Positions 6,726-54,619 of a DNA stretch of 64,000 nucleotides are shown here, one piece after another. The translations under genes and the position numbers were made by a program. The notes beneath the pieces are model-generated. The model was not told the DNA's origin. It worked only from the letters and a program-made list of their open reading frames with translations, and searched no databases. The stretch's first letter is position 1, and the number at the start of each line of letters is the position of its first letter. Location: NCBI RefSeq assembly GCF_054482595.1, contig NZ_CM137008.1; one strand, given 5' to 3'.

Positions 6726-13572
<6,847 letters not shown>

Positions 13573-48654: not shown

Positions 48655-50406
48655 TCATTCTAATGCCTTCTCAATGTTTGTATTTATTTCTGATAAACTA
48701 TTAATTACACCGTCAAATACAAAATCAAGAGCGTTACTATAACCAATTGCTAAAGTAGCTGAATCAAATCCTAGTTTTGCTAAATGCTCAATTGATTTGT
48801 TTACTGCTTCATGAGCTTCAGCATTTCTTAAATCATTATTTATAAAAAACGATGCCACTTTTTTATTTTGAGTTTTAAAATCTGCAAATTCTGTGGCGTG
48901 CTTAAGTACAGATGAGTCTTCATTCTGTTCAATAATTGGCTCGATAAGGTTAAGTAATGATTGAAGTAGTTTCAGAGTTTGGAATTTTTCGATGTCTGAT
49001 TTATTAACACCCATTGCAATTAATAATTTTTTTAAAGAGCCTGATTTAATCTTATTTAAAATCTCATTAATAGTCTTACATCTATTCAAAAAATCCGGTT
49101 CTTGCATGTCATTTGGCGCAACAAATGCTAGCTTCTGCAATACTGGATAGTTAGAGATTCCTTCTGATTCTAACTCTGTGCGATTAATTTCTAAAATGTC
49201 TGCATTGGATAAAGTAACACCAATACTTCTACCAAGTGCTACAAGATTATCGCTAAGTCTTGCTAGTTCTCTAGCGAATTTAAATGTTTTAGATACAATA
49301 TGTTCTCCGCTTAAATCATTTTCAGTGATTTGGTTTGGATCCTTAGCATAATCAAAAACATGATAAACCTCCTCTTCAGGAATTCCTCGATACAGCTCAT
49401 AAAACGGAATTCTGACTAAGTTTCTTCCAACCCTGATGCAATCCCTAAAGGACCATTGTCCACCGTAGCTTGGAGCAACCCTATAAGAATAGCCGTCATA
49501 AAATGGAATAGCATCATATGAAGAATCTTTTTCATATTTAGTAAGGAAAGAGTCATTAACCAAGACATATTCATTGTTTCTGATGTCTTTGGCTCTTGAA
49601 CTCGTCATAGGAGTATCATATCCCGGCCATATTAATTCATCTATATTTAATTTTTTACAAAGTTCAGGCTGAACAGATTGTACACTTCCCCATGCTTGCA
49701 ATAATATATTGTCCCCATTATCTACTATCTCAAAATCTATCCAAGGCAAATCAAACTTGAAATGTTTTGACCCAGACAATAAGTTAATTACTTCCGTCGT
49801 TCTTTGAATACGTGCTTCATAGTAAAAAACACGTACACCAACATAATTTCTCATCCAGAGGTATTTTCTTAGATAATCATTACGCATTGTCCATTTTACA
49901 TCTTTATTACTTCTAAAGTAATACTCGCTTGACACATCCCCTTGTGCGACTCCATAATCGGGCAAGCTTACCTCATCGAAAATGACTTTTTGCTCAGTGT
50001 CACCTATAAGTCTGGGTTTTAGACCAAGCATCATCCATACATCTTCAGCTAAAAAAAATGAAAAGTGAGAACTATCACCCCAAGAAGCTACAATATACTT
50101 ATAACCTGAAATTGATAAACTATAATCTCTTGCTCCGCCTTTAGACCTACAGTCAGGAGTCGAAAATGAAACTAAACCATTAGTAGACTCCTGGAGAACT
50201 TTGATATTATTGATATCTTCTTGTGGTACGGTAGCCATTGTCATATGAGCACACTCATGATTATCTTTAAAAAGATTTTTTTCGTATCTATGTGTGACAA
50301 TGACCTCTTTCTGTGGATTAGTAATATCCTCTATAGATAATAAATCTTTAAGACCTTGAGGGATCTGATCTACTGGTAAAGGTAATTGTGATATATAGTC
50401 AATCAT
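48655..50406 (-). CDS. Hypothetical 583-aa cargo protein (no TM, no recognised NTPase motif), C-terminal Rx4H (HEPN-like) motif; candidate defence/abortive-infection gene
   Basis: Long clean ORF, visibly AT-rich, own ~320-bp AT-rich upstream region, located between att core and int. Confidence 0.7.
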   Translation of the reverse strand: MIDYISQLPLPVDQIPQGLKDLLSIEDITNPQKEVIVTHRYEKNLFKDNHECAHMTMATVPQEDINNIKVLQESTNGLVSFSTPDCRSKGGARDYSLSISGYKYIVASWGDSSHFSFFLAEDVWMMLGLKPRLIGDTEQKVIFDEVSLPDYGVAQGDVSSEYYFRSNKDVKWTMRNDYLRKYLWMRNYVGVRVFYYEARIQRTTEVINLLSGSKHFKFDLPWIDFEIVDNGDNILLQAWGSVQSVQPELCKKLNIDELIWPGYDTPMTSSRAKDIRNNEYVLVNDSFLTKYEKDSSYDAIPFYDGYSYRVAPSYGGQWSFRDCIRVGRNLVRIPFYELYRGIPEEEVYHVFDYAKDPNQITENDLSGEHIVSKTFKFARELARLSDNLVALGRSIGVTLSNADILEINRTELESEGISNYPVLQKLAFVAPNDMQEPDFLNRCKTINEILNKIKSGSLKKLLIAMGVNKSDIEKFQTLKLLQSLLNLIEPIIEQNEDSSVLKHATEFADFKTQNKKVASFFINNDLRNAEAHEAVNKSIEHLAKLGFDSATLAIGYSNALDFVFDGVINSLSEINTNIEKALE

Positions 50407-50728: not shown

Positions 50729-51913
50729 TTAACTGGCTTTAATTTCTCCATGTGGTACGACAACCCAATCAATATGGTTTTGCGTATAAATCTTGGTTGA
50801 CTTGGAGTCGCTGTGCGCCATTCGTGCTTGCGGATCGATACCTTGCTGATCGAAAAGATACGCTGCTAATGCTCTAATTTCGTGAAAGGTTGGTCTTTCA
50901 TCTATCGGTAGATTGTCGCATAAACCTAGCTTGTCACGTGTGGCTGAAAACGACCGGCTCAAATAGTCCGGTGCAACTTGAGTAGGGTGTGAAACCTCTT
51001 TGCTGCGTTTAACCTGCCGTTCAGGGATCCTGTGAACGACAAACGGACTGGCCACATTATCTCGGCTATCATCAATTATTCGTTTCAACTCTTCACCAAT
51101 CGGTATTGCAACGTGTGATGCCTCTTTTTTTTGCACTTTTTGCCTGTGGATGTAAAGCGTCCCATATATGCCATTTTGTGGTTGTTCGAACCAGACACAT
51201 CCACATATACCGTCTTTAGGTTCGCGAATTGAGTAACGGATTCGCGATACTTCGAGTCGTGCATGTGTAGTCTGCAATGCTAGGTCCATTGCTGTTCTTA
51301 ACCATGGTGCAGCGGCCTGCCTGATAGCTATAAAATGCTCGAGTGACAGGCGCCGTCTTTTCTTCTCATCAGTCCTACGCATTTTTTTTCTGATGGCCGG
51401 GTTATCCAGCATTAGTGATTCATCGACCGCATAAGAGAACAACTTTTTAAGGAAGCTGACCTTTCTGTTCTGCACATTTGCGGATGCGCAGGCATGATAT
51501 TTATTGATGTAGGTATTAACGTGTTCAAGTGCAATATCGCATGCTGGAACATTTACGAAAAACGCTTTTACGCGTAGAGCGTCATTTTTCCAGTCATCTA
51601 AGGTGCTCTGGGAAGGACGTTCGTCTTCGATAATCCGGGTCATTATGTGATCAACATGTTCAGCAAATGGTTTTGCTTCTCCGATAACACCGCCAGATTC
51701 TCTAATAAGATTATCTACTGATGGAGATAATTCTGGTCGCATCCTCAGGTTGTACTCTCTGGCGATTGCAATGGCTATTGCCCTATCCTTACCTATATTT
51801 TTCTTCTTTCCGGTAATAAGTGTGAATTTATAAACACCTCGATCTTTATCAAAAATCAGATAATCAGGAAGATGTCTGTATTCTTTTTTACGTGGCCTTG
51901 CCGCCATGGTCAC
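50729..51913 (-). CDS. int: Phage integrase, tyrosine recombinase
   Basis: 394 aa; C-terminal catalytic region with HEIRALAAYL (HxxR) and STKIYTQ (Tyr); overlaps xis. Confidence 0.92.
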   Translation of the reverse strand: MTMAARPRKKEYRHLPDYLIFDKDRGVYKFTLITGKKKNIGKDRAIAIAIAREYNLRMRPELSPSVDNLIRESGGVIGEAKPFAEHVDHIMTRIIEDERPSQSTLDDWKNDALRVKAFFVNVPACDIALEHVNTYINKYHACASANVQNRKVSFLKKLFSYAVDESLMLDNPAIRKKMRRTDEKKRRRLSLEHFIAIRQAAAPWLRTAMDLALQTTHARLEVSRIRYSIREPKDGICGCVWFEQPQNGIYGTLYIHRQKVQKKEASHVAIPIGEELKRIIDDSRDNVASPFVVHRIPERQVKRSKEVSHPTQVAPDYLSRSFSATRDKLGLCDNLPIDERPTFHEIRALAAYLFDQQGIDPQARMAHSDSKSTKIYTQNHIDWVVVPHGEIKAS

Positions 51914-52119
51914 CCCTCATTTATTAACTTGCGAACAGCTTGACTAACCATTGAGTCGACTCCCCATTTTTCTGTTTCGCAGACAAAAACAGAACCGTCC
52001 ACGATGCGTCCCATGAGTAGACCGTTCTCGACCCAACGTTTTATCGTTCGGTTGTCAGGAATTGAGCCATTAGAGAATTCACGGCGTCCCCATTGGCTCG
52101 CTTTCATTAGTTTTGCCAT
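51910..52119 (-). CDS. xis: Excisionase (Xis-like)
   Basis: Small ORF overlapping int start by 4 nt; ...RTIKRWVENG... winged-helix excisionase motif; start at MAKLMK chosen (ORF-track start 52164 possible). Confidence 0.75.
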   Translation of the reverse strand: MAKLMKASQWGRREFSNGSIPDNRTIKRWVENGLLMGRIVDGSVFVCETEKWGVDSMVSQAVRKLINEG

Positions 52120-52180
52120 GGCTGTTTCTCCACTTAGCCCGCTGCACACGGGTAGTAATATCAAATTCCAGTCCTGATAA

Positions 52181-52396: not shown

Positions 52397-52920
52397 TTTT
52401 TATTCTCCGGTGCTTTCGGCATTACTGCCCAGTGGGTAATATTGACGTTTTCAAGGTCCCCGACCTGAAATGTCCACTGCCATTCTCCGGTTTCTTTTTG
52501 CCCCCAATGTGTACCAGAGAGAACGCCAGCCAATCAGCCAGCCTTCTCCATTAGCATCAAATAACAGAACACTTTCATGTCTGTTTTGTAAAAAGGACGG
52601 TACCAGCCGGAAGCAAGGGTACAAGCTGGTACCTCCAAGACTACACACAGCATAAAGTTGTGGTGCCGGGTGCCTCCCGGTGCCTGGCGAAGGTTGCACA
52701 CCAGGCGGGTGGGTATCCACAGAAGGTCGACTGTCAGCCTCAACCTTTACCCGCGTGCGCTGAGCCGCATTCACCACAACGCTAAGGATTCTCTCTGGTT
52801 GAAAATACTTAGCTGTTATGTGCCTGCTTTTAGCCACATCAGGCGAGGTGGACCTAGTTATTCCCCAACAACAAGGATTTGGTTATTATGTAACCCTCCC
52901 CAACAACGATAAGGATTTAT

Positions 52921-53010
52921 ATGGAACGATGTGTAGATAAGTATGAGGAGAGGCATGTGCCGTTAAGGCAAAAGCCTCCAGTTCCTCCAAAACCACCCAA
53001 GGAAAACTGA
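52921..53010 (+). CDS. Putative 29-aa proline-rich leader peptide (MERCVDKYEERHVPLRQKPPVPPKPPKEN)
   Basis: AGGA RBS 5 nt upstream of ATG; stop 7 nt before the 164-aa ORF start; see findings. Confidence 0.35.
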   Translation: MERCVDKYEERHVPLRQKPPVPPKPPKEN

Positions 53011-53017
53011 GACTAAT

Positions 53018-53512
53018 ATGACCAGAGACGATTATAAATTTTATATTCACTACTCTTATGTATTGGAGAAGATGAATTACACGTTGTTAACTCGTATTGA
53101 TAAATTAATAACGTTGATGTTAATCGTTCTCGGTTTTTCAGTTTTCGCCCCGTACAGTAATTTATTTATTTTCGGTTTGTTTGTTGCCGTACTTTCGGTT
53201 CTTCAGTTGGTCTATCAGTTCGGCCAGGAGGCTGGGATGTCTAAAGAACAAGCGAGGCATTACAAAAGACTGCTGATTGAGTCTGATACTCTTTCTGAAG
53301 ATCAGTTGCAAGCTAGGTATTTAAAAATCCAAGATACCGATAGTAATCCATGGAAATCACTTGAACGAGCGGCTTTCATTCGGGCCTGCATTTTTGCTGG
53401 TGTTCCAACTAAGTACGATCTAACAACCAAAGAAAAATTTATTGCTTGGTGTGCGGGAGATCTACCTCTAGAGAATGAACTAACGGATATTAATGATGAC
53501 CAACAAGCATAA
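53018..53512 (+). CDS. Small membrane protein with two N-terminal TM helices; SieB-like position (superinfection exclusion candidate)
   Basis: 164 aa, AT-rich, hydrophobic segments LITLMLIVLGFSVFAPY and LFIFGLFVAVLSVLQLVY; sits between early-left region and cI on opposite strand. Confidence 0.65.
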   Translation: MTRDDYKFYIHYSYVLEKMNYTLLTRIDKLITLMLIVLGFSVFAPYSNLFIFGLFVAVLSVLQLVYQFGQEAGMSKEQARHYKRLLIESDTLSEDQLQARYLKIQDTDSNPWKSLERAAFIRACIFAGVPTKYDLTTKEKFIAWCAGDLPLENELTDINDDQQA

Positions 53513-53567
53513 TCCAGTTCACGGACATGTACCTCCGAAGCCGAAACCACCGAAACCGAAGAAATGA
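53496..53567 (+). CDS. Putative 23-aa proline-rich micro-ORF (MTNKHNPVHGHVPPKPKPPKPKK)
   Basis: ATG overlapping the 3' end of the 164-aa ORF; see findings. Confidence 0.3.
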   Translation: MTNKHNPVHGHVPPKPKPPKPKK

Positions 53568-53586
53568 GACATAATAGGATTGGATA

Positions 53587-53655
53587 ATGAGTCGACCAAT
53601 AGAGCCTTTTCATATTCCACCTCGTCCCAGGCCACCAGATCCAGGCCCAAAGTGA
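53587..53655 (+). CDS. Putative 22-aa proline-rich micro-ORF (MSRPIEPFHIPPRPRPPDPGPK)
   Basis: AGGA RBS 7 nt upstream; followed by terminator hairpin. Confidence 0.3.
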   Translation: MSRPIEPFHIPPRPRPPDPGPK

Positions 53656-53678
53656 GGGTTACTGATTTTTAAAGAGCG

Positions 53679-53703
53679 AAGCGTCCGGTAGGGCGCTTTT
53701 TTG
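53679..53703 (+). terminator. Rho-independent terminator closing the membrane-protein/micro-ORF unit
   Basis: AAGCGTCC-GGTA-GGGCGCTT hairpin (one G-U pair) followed by TTTTTT. Confidence 0.6.
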
Positions 53704-53817
53704 TTGCTAACGAATCATCTTGGACTTCATATGCCCCAGGCGGCTACTTCGTGAGCGTCCTGCCTGTTTGTTGTTTCTCTTGGGTACATTATGTATCTCA
53801 AAGGTACATTGTCAAGC

Positions 53818-53842
53818 ATAAAAAAACCTGCCGAAGCAGGTT
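53818..53842 (-). terminator. Rho-independent terminator downstream of cI
   Basis: Minus strand AACCTGC-TTCG-GCAGGTT followed by U-run. Confidence 0.65.
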
Positions 53843-53854
53843 CATAAACATTGA

Positions 53855-54529
53855 TTAGGCTTTGATTTTGTATCTTCTTGGTTTTCCTGAGAAAATCACA
53901 GTACCAATTATAGAGCAATTACCGTTGATCTTAATGTAAGGCTCAGGCCAGTTTGGGTTTAACGCTTTGAGATAACGCTGTGTCCCATCTTCTATCAACC
54001 TTTTGAAGGTGGTTTCACCTGTATCGTGCATCAATGCAATAACGTCGTCACCGTGGCAGGCAGGTACTTCAGGATCGACAAAAATCATGTCTCCCGGGCG
54101 GTACTCATCAATCATTGAATCACCTATCACCCGCAAGATATAAGTCATTTCCCCACAGGGTACAGGGCAGGGATACGTTTCTGCTGTGCTCAAATCAACC
54201 TCAGAATATCCAACTTCTTTCCATGCTCCGGCCTGTACCCATGATATGACAGGGACTAATGTGATTTGTTTATTAGTGATTGAAACATCAGGTTTTTTTG
54301 TGATGTTCGTTGTCTGGTGTTCTTGATCGAGCCATCCGACAGGCAGGTCGAAACATTTTTCGATGTGTCGTGCCATGCTGTCACCGATATTTTTAGTAGC
54401 ACCATCTCCCATAAACCTGCTGGTTTGGGTTGGCTCGCGATCAATCATAGTGGCAAAGGAAGAATTCCCGCCAACACCATCTCTCAGTTTTCTGGCGTTA
54501 GACCGCCGGATGTCATGGATTGTTTTCAT
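53855..54529 (-). CDS. Phage repressor CI-like (HTH plus S24 LexA-type autopeptidase domain)
   Basis: 224 aa; C-terminal ...VIGDSMIDEYRPGDMIFVDPE... S24 Ser/Lys peptidase signature; divergent from cro-like gene. Confidence 0.88.
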   Translation of the reverse strand: MKTIHDIRRSNARKLRDGVGGNSSFATMIDREPTQTSRFMGDGATKNIGDSMARHIEKCFDLPVGWLDQEHQTTNITKKPDVSITNKQITLVPVISWVQAGAWKEVGYSEVDLSTAETYPCPVPCGEMTYILRVIGDSMIDEYRPGDMIFVDPEVPACHGDDVIALMHDTGETTFKRLIEDGTQRYLKALNPNWPEPYIKINGNCSIIGTVIFSGKPRRYKIKA

Positions 54530-54544
54530 AACGAAATTAAAACC

Positions 54545-54565
54545 CTTGTACCGTTAAGGTACAAG
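54545..54565. promoter_or_regulatory. Operator-like perfect palindrome CTTGTACC-GTTAA-GGTACAAG in cI/cro intergenic
   Basis: Read directly; GGTAC(A) half-sites recur near 54607, 53776, 53800 and 52617. Confidence 0.6.
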
Positions 54566-54569
54566 TATC

Positions 54570-54597
54570 TTGAAGGTTCATTTTAATCATGTAATAT
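54570..54597 (+). promoter_or_regulatory. Candidate pR-like sigma70 promoter (TTGAAG-N16-TAATAT) for cro-like gene
   Basis: -35/-10 hexamers adjacent to operator palindrome, GGAGG RBS downstream. Confidence 0.5.
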
Positions 54598-54619
54598 GTA
54601 TACCGGAGGTACATATTGT

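Follow-up and report, generated by a model that had tools for sequence, protein, structure and literature searches.

The ORF164 locus

ORF164 is a gene for a small membrane protein which lies, together with three very short proline-rich open reading frames (ORFs), in the immunity region of an Escherichia coli lambdoid prophage of the SfV/SfIV/e14 type. The DNA analysed here, hereafter the window, is a stretch of 64,000 nucleotides (nt) of contig NZ_CM137008.1 (assembly GCF_054482595.1), within which ORF164 reads from ATG to TAA at exactly positions 53018–53512 of the plus strand and encodes 164 amino acids (aa). A first inspection of the sequence, referred to below as the original prediction, had likened the gene to the superinfection-exclusion genes of the sieB type. 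The features recognized in and immediately around it, including two transmembrane (TM) segments of its product, are the following:

52821–52920, plus strand: conserved leader of a cargo slot, containing a hairpin (GCCTG..CAGGC), two CCCCAACAAC repeats and the Shine-Dalgarno sequence TAAGGA of pepA
52890–52898, plus strand: left arm of an inverted repeat, GTAACCCTC, an arm whose sequence covaries with the type of cargo in other loci
52921–53010, plus strand: upstream micro-ORF pepA, 29 aa, MERCVDKYEERHVPLRQKPPVPPKPPKEN, found by all-frame reading and having upstream counterparts in relatives
53018–53512, plus strand: ORF164, gene for a two-TM (2TM) inner-membrane protein, probably a remote relative of SLATT proteins, phrog_6315; identified from the ORF, homology, hydropathy and AlphaFold2
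53493–53567, plus strand: downstream micro-ORF dn1, 23–24 aa, (M)MTNKHNPVHGHVPPKPKPPKPKK, out of frame with ORF164, whose 3′ end it overlaps
53587–53655, plus strand: downstream micro-ORF dn2, 22 aa, MSRPIEPFHIPPRPRPPDPGPK, identified from third-position substitutions and a motif confined in IMG/VR to neighbours of 2TM genes
53654–53662, plus strand: right arm of the inverted repeat, GAGGGTTAC, placed over the stop codon of dn2 and shortly before the terminator
53678–53699, plus strand: intrinsic terminator, GAAGCGTCCGGTAGGGCGCTTT followed by a T run, retained in many loci on the right side of the slot

These elements constitute a single, self-contained plus-strand cassette, extending from about 52821 to 53699 and composed of a leader, a proline-rich micro-ORF, the 2TM protein gene, two paralogous proline-rich micro-ORFs and a terminator.

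ORF164 is a genuine gene and not a chance ORF. The family phrog_6315 covers its full length (E 8.6e-64), 72 close homologues are found, in Enterobacterales, and clustering of the whole family at 50% identity gives 369 representatives; apart from short fragments, almost all of these are 145–180 aa long. Homologues with 31–36% identity are encoded by Fels-2, Yersinia phage vB_YenM_42.18, Providencia phage PSTNGR2lys and phage EKP1, the alignment with these phage proteins beginning at residue 1–2, and the cassette is found in about 46 of 5,426 complete E. coli genomes. The GC content of the gene is 38.0% as compared to 50.6% for the window, which bears out the AT-richness noted in the original prediction.

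In strain 50EVA, which is 99.9% identical, the NCBI PGAP annotation calls only the C-terminal 91 aa (53237–53512; positions 6838–7113 of locus L001), but the long form of 164 aa is to be preferred because the homology reaches back to residue 1. In two phage records an opposite-strand ORF is annotated across the conserved 2TM gene and its micro-ORF, namely those of Fels-2 (STM2733.1, L004 4914–5318) and of the Yersinia phage (gene 008, L005 4797–5462). The 50EVA call and both of these ORFs are likely mis-annotations.

The proline-rich micro-ORFs

Reading the flanks of ORF164 in all frames reveals three small plus-strand ORFs, pepA, dn1 and dn2, so that the single-gene picture of the original prediction, right as far as the gene itself is concerned, had overlooked the partners that accompany it in the cassette. 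The constancy of this association emerges from 62 IMG/VR loci encoding ORF164 relatives, 34 distinct ones of which were scored for an upstream micro-ORF: a full-length proline-rich micro-ORF is present in 33, the 34th retaining only a 14-aa, ATG-started remnant. An upstream proline-rich micro-ORF also accompanies distant metagenomic members of the family (22–30% identity), and one to three downstream copies are found in the lambdoid loci. All types of micropeptide can be aligned on the core H-x-P-P-x-P-R-P-P-x-P, in which the His is nearly invariant.

When loci differing by up to about 33% in DNA across the motif are compared, the substitutions at codon positions 1/2/3 amount to 112/64/571 for the dn2 type and to 57/44/257, 108/83/230 and 14/16/81 for the other types. 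As judged from this pattern, the micro-ORFs are coding, in the plus-strand frame, and subject to purifying selection. Two ORFs of the opposite strand, a Gly-rich one of 43 aa (53519–53650, minus strand; ..FGFGGFGFGG) and one of 103 aa (53302–53613, minus strand) with a weak, below-threshold match to HapK, were rejected as mirror artefacts of the proline-rich micro-ORFs because the substitutions sit at plus-strand third codon positions.

Searching the whole of IMG/VR with a degenerate DNA pattern that encodes H[VI]PP[RKQH]PRPP gives 39 matches, 28 of which lie on the same strand as, and within 1.5 kb of, an ORF164-family 2TM gene; the remaining 11, approximately the number expected by chance, are GC-rich and are not Met-started micro-ORFs of the micropeptide type. 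Within IMG/VR the micropeptides occur solely beside 2TM genes of the ORF164 family.

The short upstream micro-ORF terminates beside or inside the ribosome-binding site of the gene that follows. The stop codon of pepA lies 7 nt ahead of the ORF164 ATG (window geometry AAGGAAAACTGAGACTAATATG), the corresponding distance is 7–21 nt in 33 of the 34 loci and, in most of them, the stop codon falls within the Shine-Dalgarno sequence of the 2TM gene (TGAGGT, TAAGGAG, TAGGA; ..TGAGGTnnnnnATG, ..TAAGGAGTTGCCATG), so that a ribosome terminating or pausing there occupies the 2TM initiation region. Translation of ORF164 would be physically coupled in this way to that of pepA, whose XPPX motifs are expected to pause ribosomes; pausing at such motifs depends on elongation factor P (EF-P). 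The location of the stop codon and the expected pausing suggest that the micropeptides probably have a regulatory role, setting or gating the amount or the activity of the membrane protein.

The same stop codon geometry and the same XPPX motifs would also be accounted for if the micro-ORFs were purely cis-regulatory, i.e., ribosome-pausing leaders or mRNA-stability elements, ORF164 being the sole functional product. Salmonella possesses polyproline leader ORFs (mgtP, MgtL) that sense tRNA-Pro or EF-P; they have in common with pepA a short, Pro-codon-rich upstream ORF whose translation influences a downstream membrane-protein gene. On the other hand, unlike what is seen with these leaders, the peptide sequence is conserved in the cassette (invariant His, RPP core), paralogues are present downstream and no attenuator structure was identified. 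Furthermore, the downstream copies precede no gene, the His and the neighbouring non-Pro residues persist where the nucleotide sequences diverge by 33% and the peptide units are found concatenated and also fused to the 2TM protein, all of which makes an exclusively cis-acting role rather improbable.

The concatenated double units occur in loci L034, L043/L046 and L047, whereas the fusion is a natural one, found in a 180-aa protein of Pectobacterium aroidearum (P0014) in which a micropeptide unit (..GHIPPRPRPPAPPKAQN) is joined in frame to the 2TM C-terminus; this fusion suggests that the micropeptides have their site of action on the cytoplasmic side of the 2TM protein. An opposite distribution of the roles can also be envisaged, with the micropeptides as the effectors, for example as peptides, intracellular or released, directed at the ribosome tunnel or DnaK in the manner of proline-rich antimicrobial peptides (PrAMPs), and the 2TM protein as their immunity, anchoring or release partner. 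The existence of several paralogous peptide genes per cassette and the strong purifying selection, which extends to the non-Pro residues, speak for it, and the PRPRPP and RPPxP cores resemble those of oncocin/apidaecin-type peptides, a resemblance that is perhaps purely compositional. Oncocin, apidaecin and Bac7 are also peptides of ~20 aa having a PRPRPP/RPPxP core after an aromatic residue or His plus an aliphatic residue. However, a likeness in composition counts for little among Pro-rich peptides, PrAMPs are eukaryotic and secreted and have different termini, the micropeptides display neither signal nor export features, and the in-frame fusion, in which a peptide unit continues the cytoplasmic C-terminus, argues for an action at the 2TM protein. 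A search of the PDB sequences (chains of at least 20 aa) with the micropeptide profile yielded nothing at E ≤ 10, but most PrAMP chains are absent from the set searched because they are shorter than 20 aa. We consider it quite improbable that the peptides are the effectors.

Architecture of the ORF164 protein and comparison with SieB

A 17-residue hydropathy scan places the hydrophobic segments of ORF164 at residues 30–46 and 49–66, with a loop of only two residues, Ser-Asn, between them. Basic residues are present on both sides of this hairpin, five Lys/Arg among the 29 residues ahead of the TM segments and 12 in the C-terminal part, which suggests an N-in/C-in topology. The AlphaFold2 model, obtained from a 28-sequence alignment (mean predicted local distance difference test score (pLDDT) 81.7, predicted TM-score (pTM) 0.71), is all-helical and contains a helical hairpin: a long N-terminal helix continues into TM1 and is followed by TM2 and then by five cytoplasmic helices, the helices of the model spanning residues 3–41, 49–66, 68–88 and onward, an arrangement with which hydropathy and charge distribution agree. 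ORF164 would span the inner membrane through its helical hairpin, both the N-terminal helix and a helical C-terminal domain of ~100 aa being cytoplasmic. The two-TM hairpin of the original prediction is upheld by both hydropathy and AlphaFold2, but the hairpin is not located at the extreme N-terminus, because a conserved amphipathic helix of about 28 aa precedes it.

With regard to the position of the gene and the logic of its placement, the original prediction is correct. The gene is located between int/xis and cI, on the strand opposite to both of these minus-strand elements, and its layout, a low-GC cargo gene that carries its own terminator and is placed, in antisense, where transcription from the early-left promoter (PL) would pass, is that of sieB in Rac and lambda. 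The likeness goes beyond the layout. SieB (Rac b1353, lambda, P22; PF14163), whose abortive-infection (Abi) phenotype is known, measures ~160–185 aa, its 2-TM hairpin being N-proximal and its C-terminus cytoplasmic; the gene is likewise antisense within the early-left unit, beside the immunity region, and, like ORF164, is presumed to be expressed in the lysogen. Size class, architecture and position could be taken to indicate that ORF164 is a member of the SieB family, the more so as pairwise BLASTP aligns 116 aa with Rac SieB at 29% identity (E = 0.016, computed for this pair alone). This alignment, however, runs through the hydrophobic TM region and does not represent evidence of homology. 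Moreover, Pfam PF14163, which detects the positive controls Rac SieB at 1.5e-31 and lambda SieB at 1e-29, matches none of 28 ORF164-family members (the window protein and 27 homologues) at E ≤ 1 and none of 119 diverse members at E ≤ 0.01, while the profile of the ORF164 family compared by hhalign gives probabilities of 0.5% and 0.2% against single SieB sequences and of 0.35% against an 8-sequence SieB profile. Both PF14163 and hhalign, i.e., the alignment to the SieB family by which the original prediction was to be checked, came out against membership; the resemblance by descent is rejected, and the assignment of ORF164 to this family is hardly credible. To this it can be added that SieB loci, as annotated, are devoid of the proline-rich micro-ORFs that are present at the ORF164 locus. 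As far as can be judged from the sequences, ORF164 and SieB share a design (size, 2-TM hairpin, antisense early-left position) and no detectable descent.

Resemblance to SLATT proteins

SLATT is the only family that recurs in remote searches with the ORF164 family. Among the NCBIfam models, SLATT_4 is matched by four of the 28 members scanned at E ≤ 1 (best E 8e-6) and by 27 of the 119 scanned at E ≤ 0.01 (best E 2e-5), SLATT_1 by three of the 119 and TIGR04402 by 19 of the 28; the SLATT matches arose only in these relaxed scans and all lie below the curated thresholds. Non-SLATT families never match more than two of the 119 members at E ≤ 0.01, whereas at the looser E ≤ 1 three unrelated families match four of the 28 members each, a number equal to that of SLATT_4. 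A Foldseek search of BFVD with the ORF164 model returned nine viral proteins named SLATT among its top 20 matches (E 0.03–0.2, probability up to 1.0, TM-score 0.5–0.6), and UniRef labels as SLATT two homologues of ORF164 (P0022 and P0045; 62–68% identity). The predicted structure and hydropathy indicate that ORF164 possesses a two-TM hairpin between cytoplasmic helical segments, as do the SLATT proteins. In the PDB neither a solved SLATT-like structure nor anything similar to the ORF164 model was found. The sub-threshold matches make it probable that ORF164 is kin to SLATT.

The literature predicts that the SLATT 2-TM effectors are pore-forming toxins causing the death or arrest of infected cells; SLATT is the predicted pore-forming effector of the DRT10 defence system (bioRxiv 10.64898/2026.04.29.721553), and transmembrane effectors act as suicide triggers (PMC9122126). 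ORF164 is similar to SLATT_4/SLATT_1 and to the SLATT-5 effector of DRT10/UG17 in having a 2-TM helical hairpin between cytoplasmic helices, in the recurrent sub-threshold matches to the hidden Markov models and the best structural matches, and in its occurrence on mobile elements and prophages. It differs from them in that it remains under every curated cut-off and has no adjacent partner enzyme (CD-NTase/SMODS, SLOG, TIR or reverse transcriptase), its invariant partner being instead a proline-rich micropeptide gene. Indeed, in the loci inspected no SMODS, SLOG, TIR or reverse-transcriptase partner is adjacent to members of the family, and the genes around these members are limited to phage early-left genes, repressors and micro-ORFs.

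The immunity region and the proposed expression of the cassette

The prophage features that flank the cassette are the following:

50729–52164, minus strand: int/xis region, left of ORF164
50729–51913, minus strand: integrase, left of ORF164, followed by an excisionase-like gene and a 71-aa phrog_1226 gene, both also on the minus strand
53772–53808, no strand assigned: candidate left operator (OL), two operator-like 17-mers, TGTTTCTCTTGGGTACA and TGTATCTCAAAGGTACA, overlapping the candidate PL
53788–53815, minus strand: candidate PL promoter, TTGACA-16-CATAAT (11 of 12 consensus positions), leftward and antisense to the cassette
53824–53843, minus strand: terminator after cI, from terminator prediction
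53855–54529, minus strand: cI/ymfK repressor of the S24 family (Pfam E 1.5e-26), right of ORF164
54547–54613: candidate right operator (OR), three further operator-like copies between cI and cro, from a repeat search

The operator-like motif, five copies of which are present in all, is 17 bp long and of the type TGTAyC-N5-GGTACA, and to the right of cI the plus strand carries cro/ymfT, ymfL and an O-like replication gene. The arrangement of PL/OL and of the rightward PR/OR is as expected for such a region, the promoter and the operators being candidates. Since the candidate PL/OL, located about 80–115 nt to the right of the cassette terminator, point leftward, early-left transcription must cross the whole cassette in antisense.

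The homologues are similarly placed in phages of other types. In Fels-2 and in the P2-like Yersinia phage the homologue reads in the direction of the repressor and integrase genes and opposes the early lytic operon, to which it is antisense; the EKP1 homologue is an antisense gene flanked by the holin gene and Q; and many lambdoid prophages endowed with different repressors carry theirs at the place that it has in the window, with cI on one side and the final early-left genes (YfdP, DUF2303 and others) on the other. This antisense placement with respect to the lytic operons suggests that the cassette would be expressed in the lysogen, while cI silences PL, and would be opposed by convergent transcription when the prophage turns to its own lytic growth.

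Two stretches to the left of the cassette deserve mention in their own right. The minus-strand sequence 52587–52810 matches over its full length the prophage small RNA (sRNA) STnc100 (RF02076), the 39.9 bits obtained (E 9e-7) being sub-threshold with respect to the gathering score of 47; STnc100 has been related to the PasD sRNAs by a 2026 preprint, and in strain 50EVA the corresponding stretch is annotated by PGAP as frameshifted pseudogene fragments. Beyond the integrase, in a stretch of 30–38% GC, a 583-aa ORF (48655–50406, minus strand) has no match to any Pfam, PHROG, NCBIfam or PADLOC entry; strain 50EVA has, still farther out, a second gene with an integrase domain, and this ORF may be separate island cargo.

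A slot for alternative cargo

The leader that precedes pepA is not peculiar to the ORF164 cassette. About 85 nt of it (consensus CCTGCTTTTAGCCACATCAGGCGAGGTGGACCTGGTTATTCCCCAACAACAAGGATTCGGTTAATCTGGATATCCCCAACAAC) are kept where everything further to the left differs, a 21-nt piece is found in at least 120 IMG/VR loci (L073–L192) and, in the 114 loci analysed, at least ten unrelated cargo families follow the same leader: a 144-aa protein in 38 loci, a coiled-coil and zinc-ribbon protein like that of phage PhiR29_1 in 32, the ORF164 cassette in 20, a 78-aa protein in eight and an LprI-like secreted protein in five, the rest being smaller groups. Different cargo is also present in close relatives: in SfV (L002 4474–4770, orf33) the slot holds a 98-aa minus-strand ORF, and in PhiR29_1 (L003 4130–4858) the 242-aa coiled-coil/zinc-ribbon protein. 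The right border of the slot is the shared terminator (GTTAAAGAGCGAAGCGTCC..GGGCGCTTTTTT). The alternative cargo has no significant match in Pfam or PADLOC.

Just inside the borders of the slot lies an inverted repeat in which 5′ AATCTGGATATCC(CCAACAAC) pairs with (GTTGTTGG)GGATATCCAGATT 3′; its inner bases vary with the cargo while their complementarity is kept (e.g., GATGACT/AGTCATC and ATCTTC/GAAGAT). Pairing of the two mRNA ends is predicted to yield duplexes of −25 to −38 kcal/mol in many loci, stronger in L003, L034, L098, L109, L113 and others. In the window itself a stem between the 5′ and 3′ ends could not be distinguished from shuffled sequences (−22.8 vs. −17.5 ± 4.1 kcal/mol). The repeat may constitute a 5′–3′ stem closing the mRNA, possibly a processing or stability element or an RNase III site, and it may also have a role at the DNA level.

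A fixed site with conserved flanks, which houses many alternative small cargo cassettes of lower GC and with an own terminator, is also what characterizes the variable cargo hotspots and morons of prophages (the P2 and P4 hotspots, PMC9122126; morons, PMC3594210). The cassette shares several features with a moron, namely its own terminator, an atypical composition, an orientation independent of the flanking operons and alternative cargo at its site. Unlike those hotspots and morons, the slot belongs to SfV/e14-like lambdoid phages, with PL/OL on one side of it and the early-left genes on the other, possesses the shared ~85-nt leader and the cargo-covarying 5′–3′ inverted repeat, and has no recognised defence gene among its cargo families.

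Proposed function of the cassette

The reading that is favoured here, though tentatively, is that the cassette encodes a SLATT-type membrane effector, expressed in the lysogen, coupled to and probably gated by the micropeptides, and acting against superinfecting phages by perturbation of the membrane. ORF164 would abort or exclude these phages, as an analogue of SieB in its logic and not as its homologue; an abortive-infection or exclusion function of this kind is plausible.

A number of observations weigh against this proposal. With regard to the effector, none of the members of the ORF164 family reaches the curated threshold of a SLATT model, ORF164 itself has no SLATT match, the Pfam SLATT models are silent for the 28 as well as for the 119 members, and an alignment-based database search returned only family members lacking Pfam domains, thereby providing no bridge to Pfam-annotated SLATT proteins. 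As to the defence function, PADLOC gives no match for ORF164, and there is no guilt by association because none of the alternative cargo of the slot is a known defence gene. As to expression, a consensus scan found no convincing plus-strand sigma-70 promoter upstream of the cassette; one weak plus-strand candidate (TTCCCC-17-TATTAT) is located within the leader. Finally, concerning the micropeptides, a purely regulatory view is incomplete because the downstream micro-ORFs cannot be leader peptides, and in the AlphaFold2 prediction of a peptide-linker-2TM-linker-peptide construct, run with a paired alignment, the peptides are undocked (pLDDT 44–55), an outcome that speaks neither for nor against binding.

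The same cassette could be a lysogenic-conversion or addiction module having no role in phage defence, ORF164 being either a membrane toxin which is held in check by labile micropeptide antitoxins and stabilises the prophage, or an envelope factor contributing to the fitness of the host. The pairing of a small peptide with a membrane protein, their tight coupling and their exclusive co-occurrence are what would be expected of a toxin-antitoxin-like pair, and the alternative cargo of the slot is uncharacterised and not demonstrably defensive. However, the micropeptides have no known antitoxin feature, and both the SLATT resemblance and the recurrent antisense placement against lytic operons in unrelated types of temperate phage fit defence cargo better; an addiction or host-fitness function is, in our opinion, unlikely.

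Starting from the favoured membrane effector against superinfecting phages, a more far-reaching hypothesis can be formulated, according to which the cassette would represent an undescribed two-component prophage immune module consisting of a SLATT-like pore-former that is controlled by, or acts together with, the “HxPP..RPP” micropeptides, a module that would be distributed across lambdoid and P2-like temperate phages and housed in a swap-in slot with a covarying 5′–3′ stem closing the mRNA. The micropeptides would then be sensors of the translation status, by virtue of the pausing at XPPX motifs, or else peptide ligands or effectors. This more elaborate version is possible but, on the whole, doubtful.

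Significance

Neither PADLOC, Pfam and NCBIfam nor the PHROG annotation and the searchable literature contain a description of a module made of ORF164 and the micropeptides. The cassette appears to consist of a stand-alone SLATT-like 2-TM cargo gene and an obligate micropeptide partner and, if this is true, a stand-alone, micropeptide-partnered branch would be added to the SLATT-type membrane effectors, whose activation is still treated as an open question (bioRxiv 10.64898/2026.04.29.721553). The annotations of strain 50EVA (the truncation by PGAP) and of Fels-2 and the Yersinia phage (the opposite-strand ORFs) would have to be corrected. In addition, the micro-ORFs would represent a family of conserved phage micropeptides that is unmarked in all the annotated records examined, and the slot would be a cargo hotspot beside PL in SfV/e14-like prophages, offering at least ten uncharacterised cargo families to be mined.

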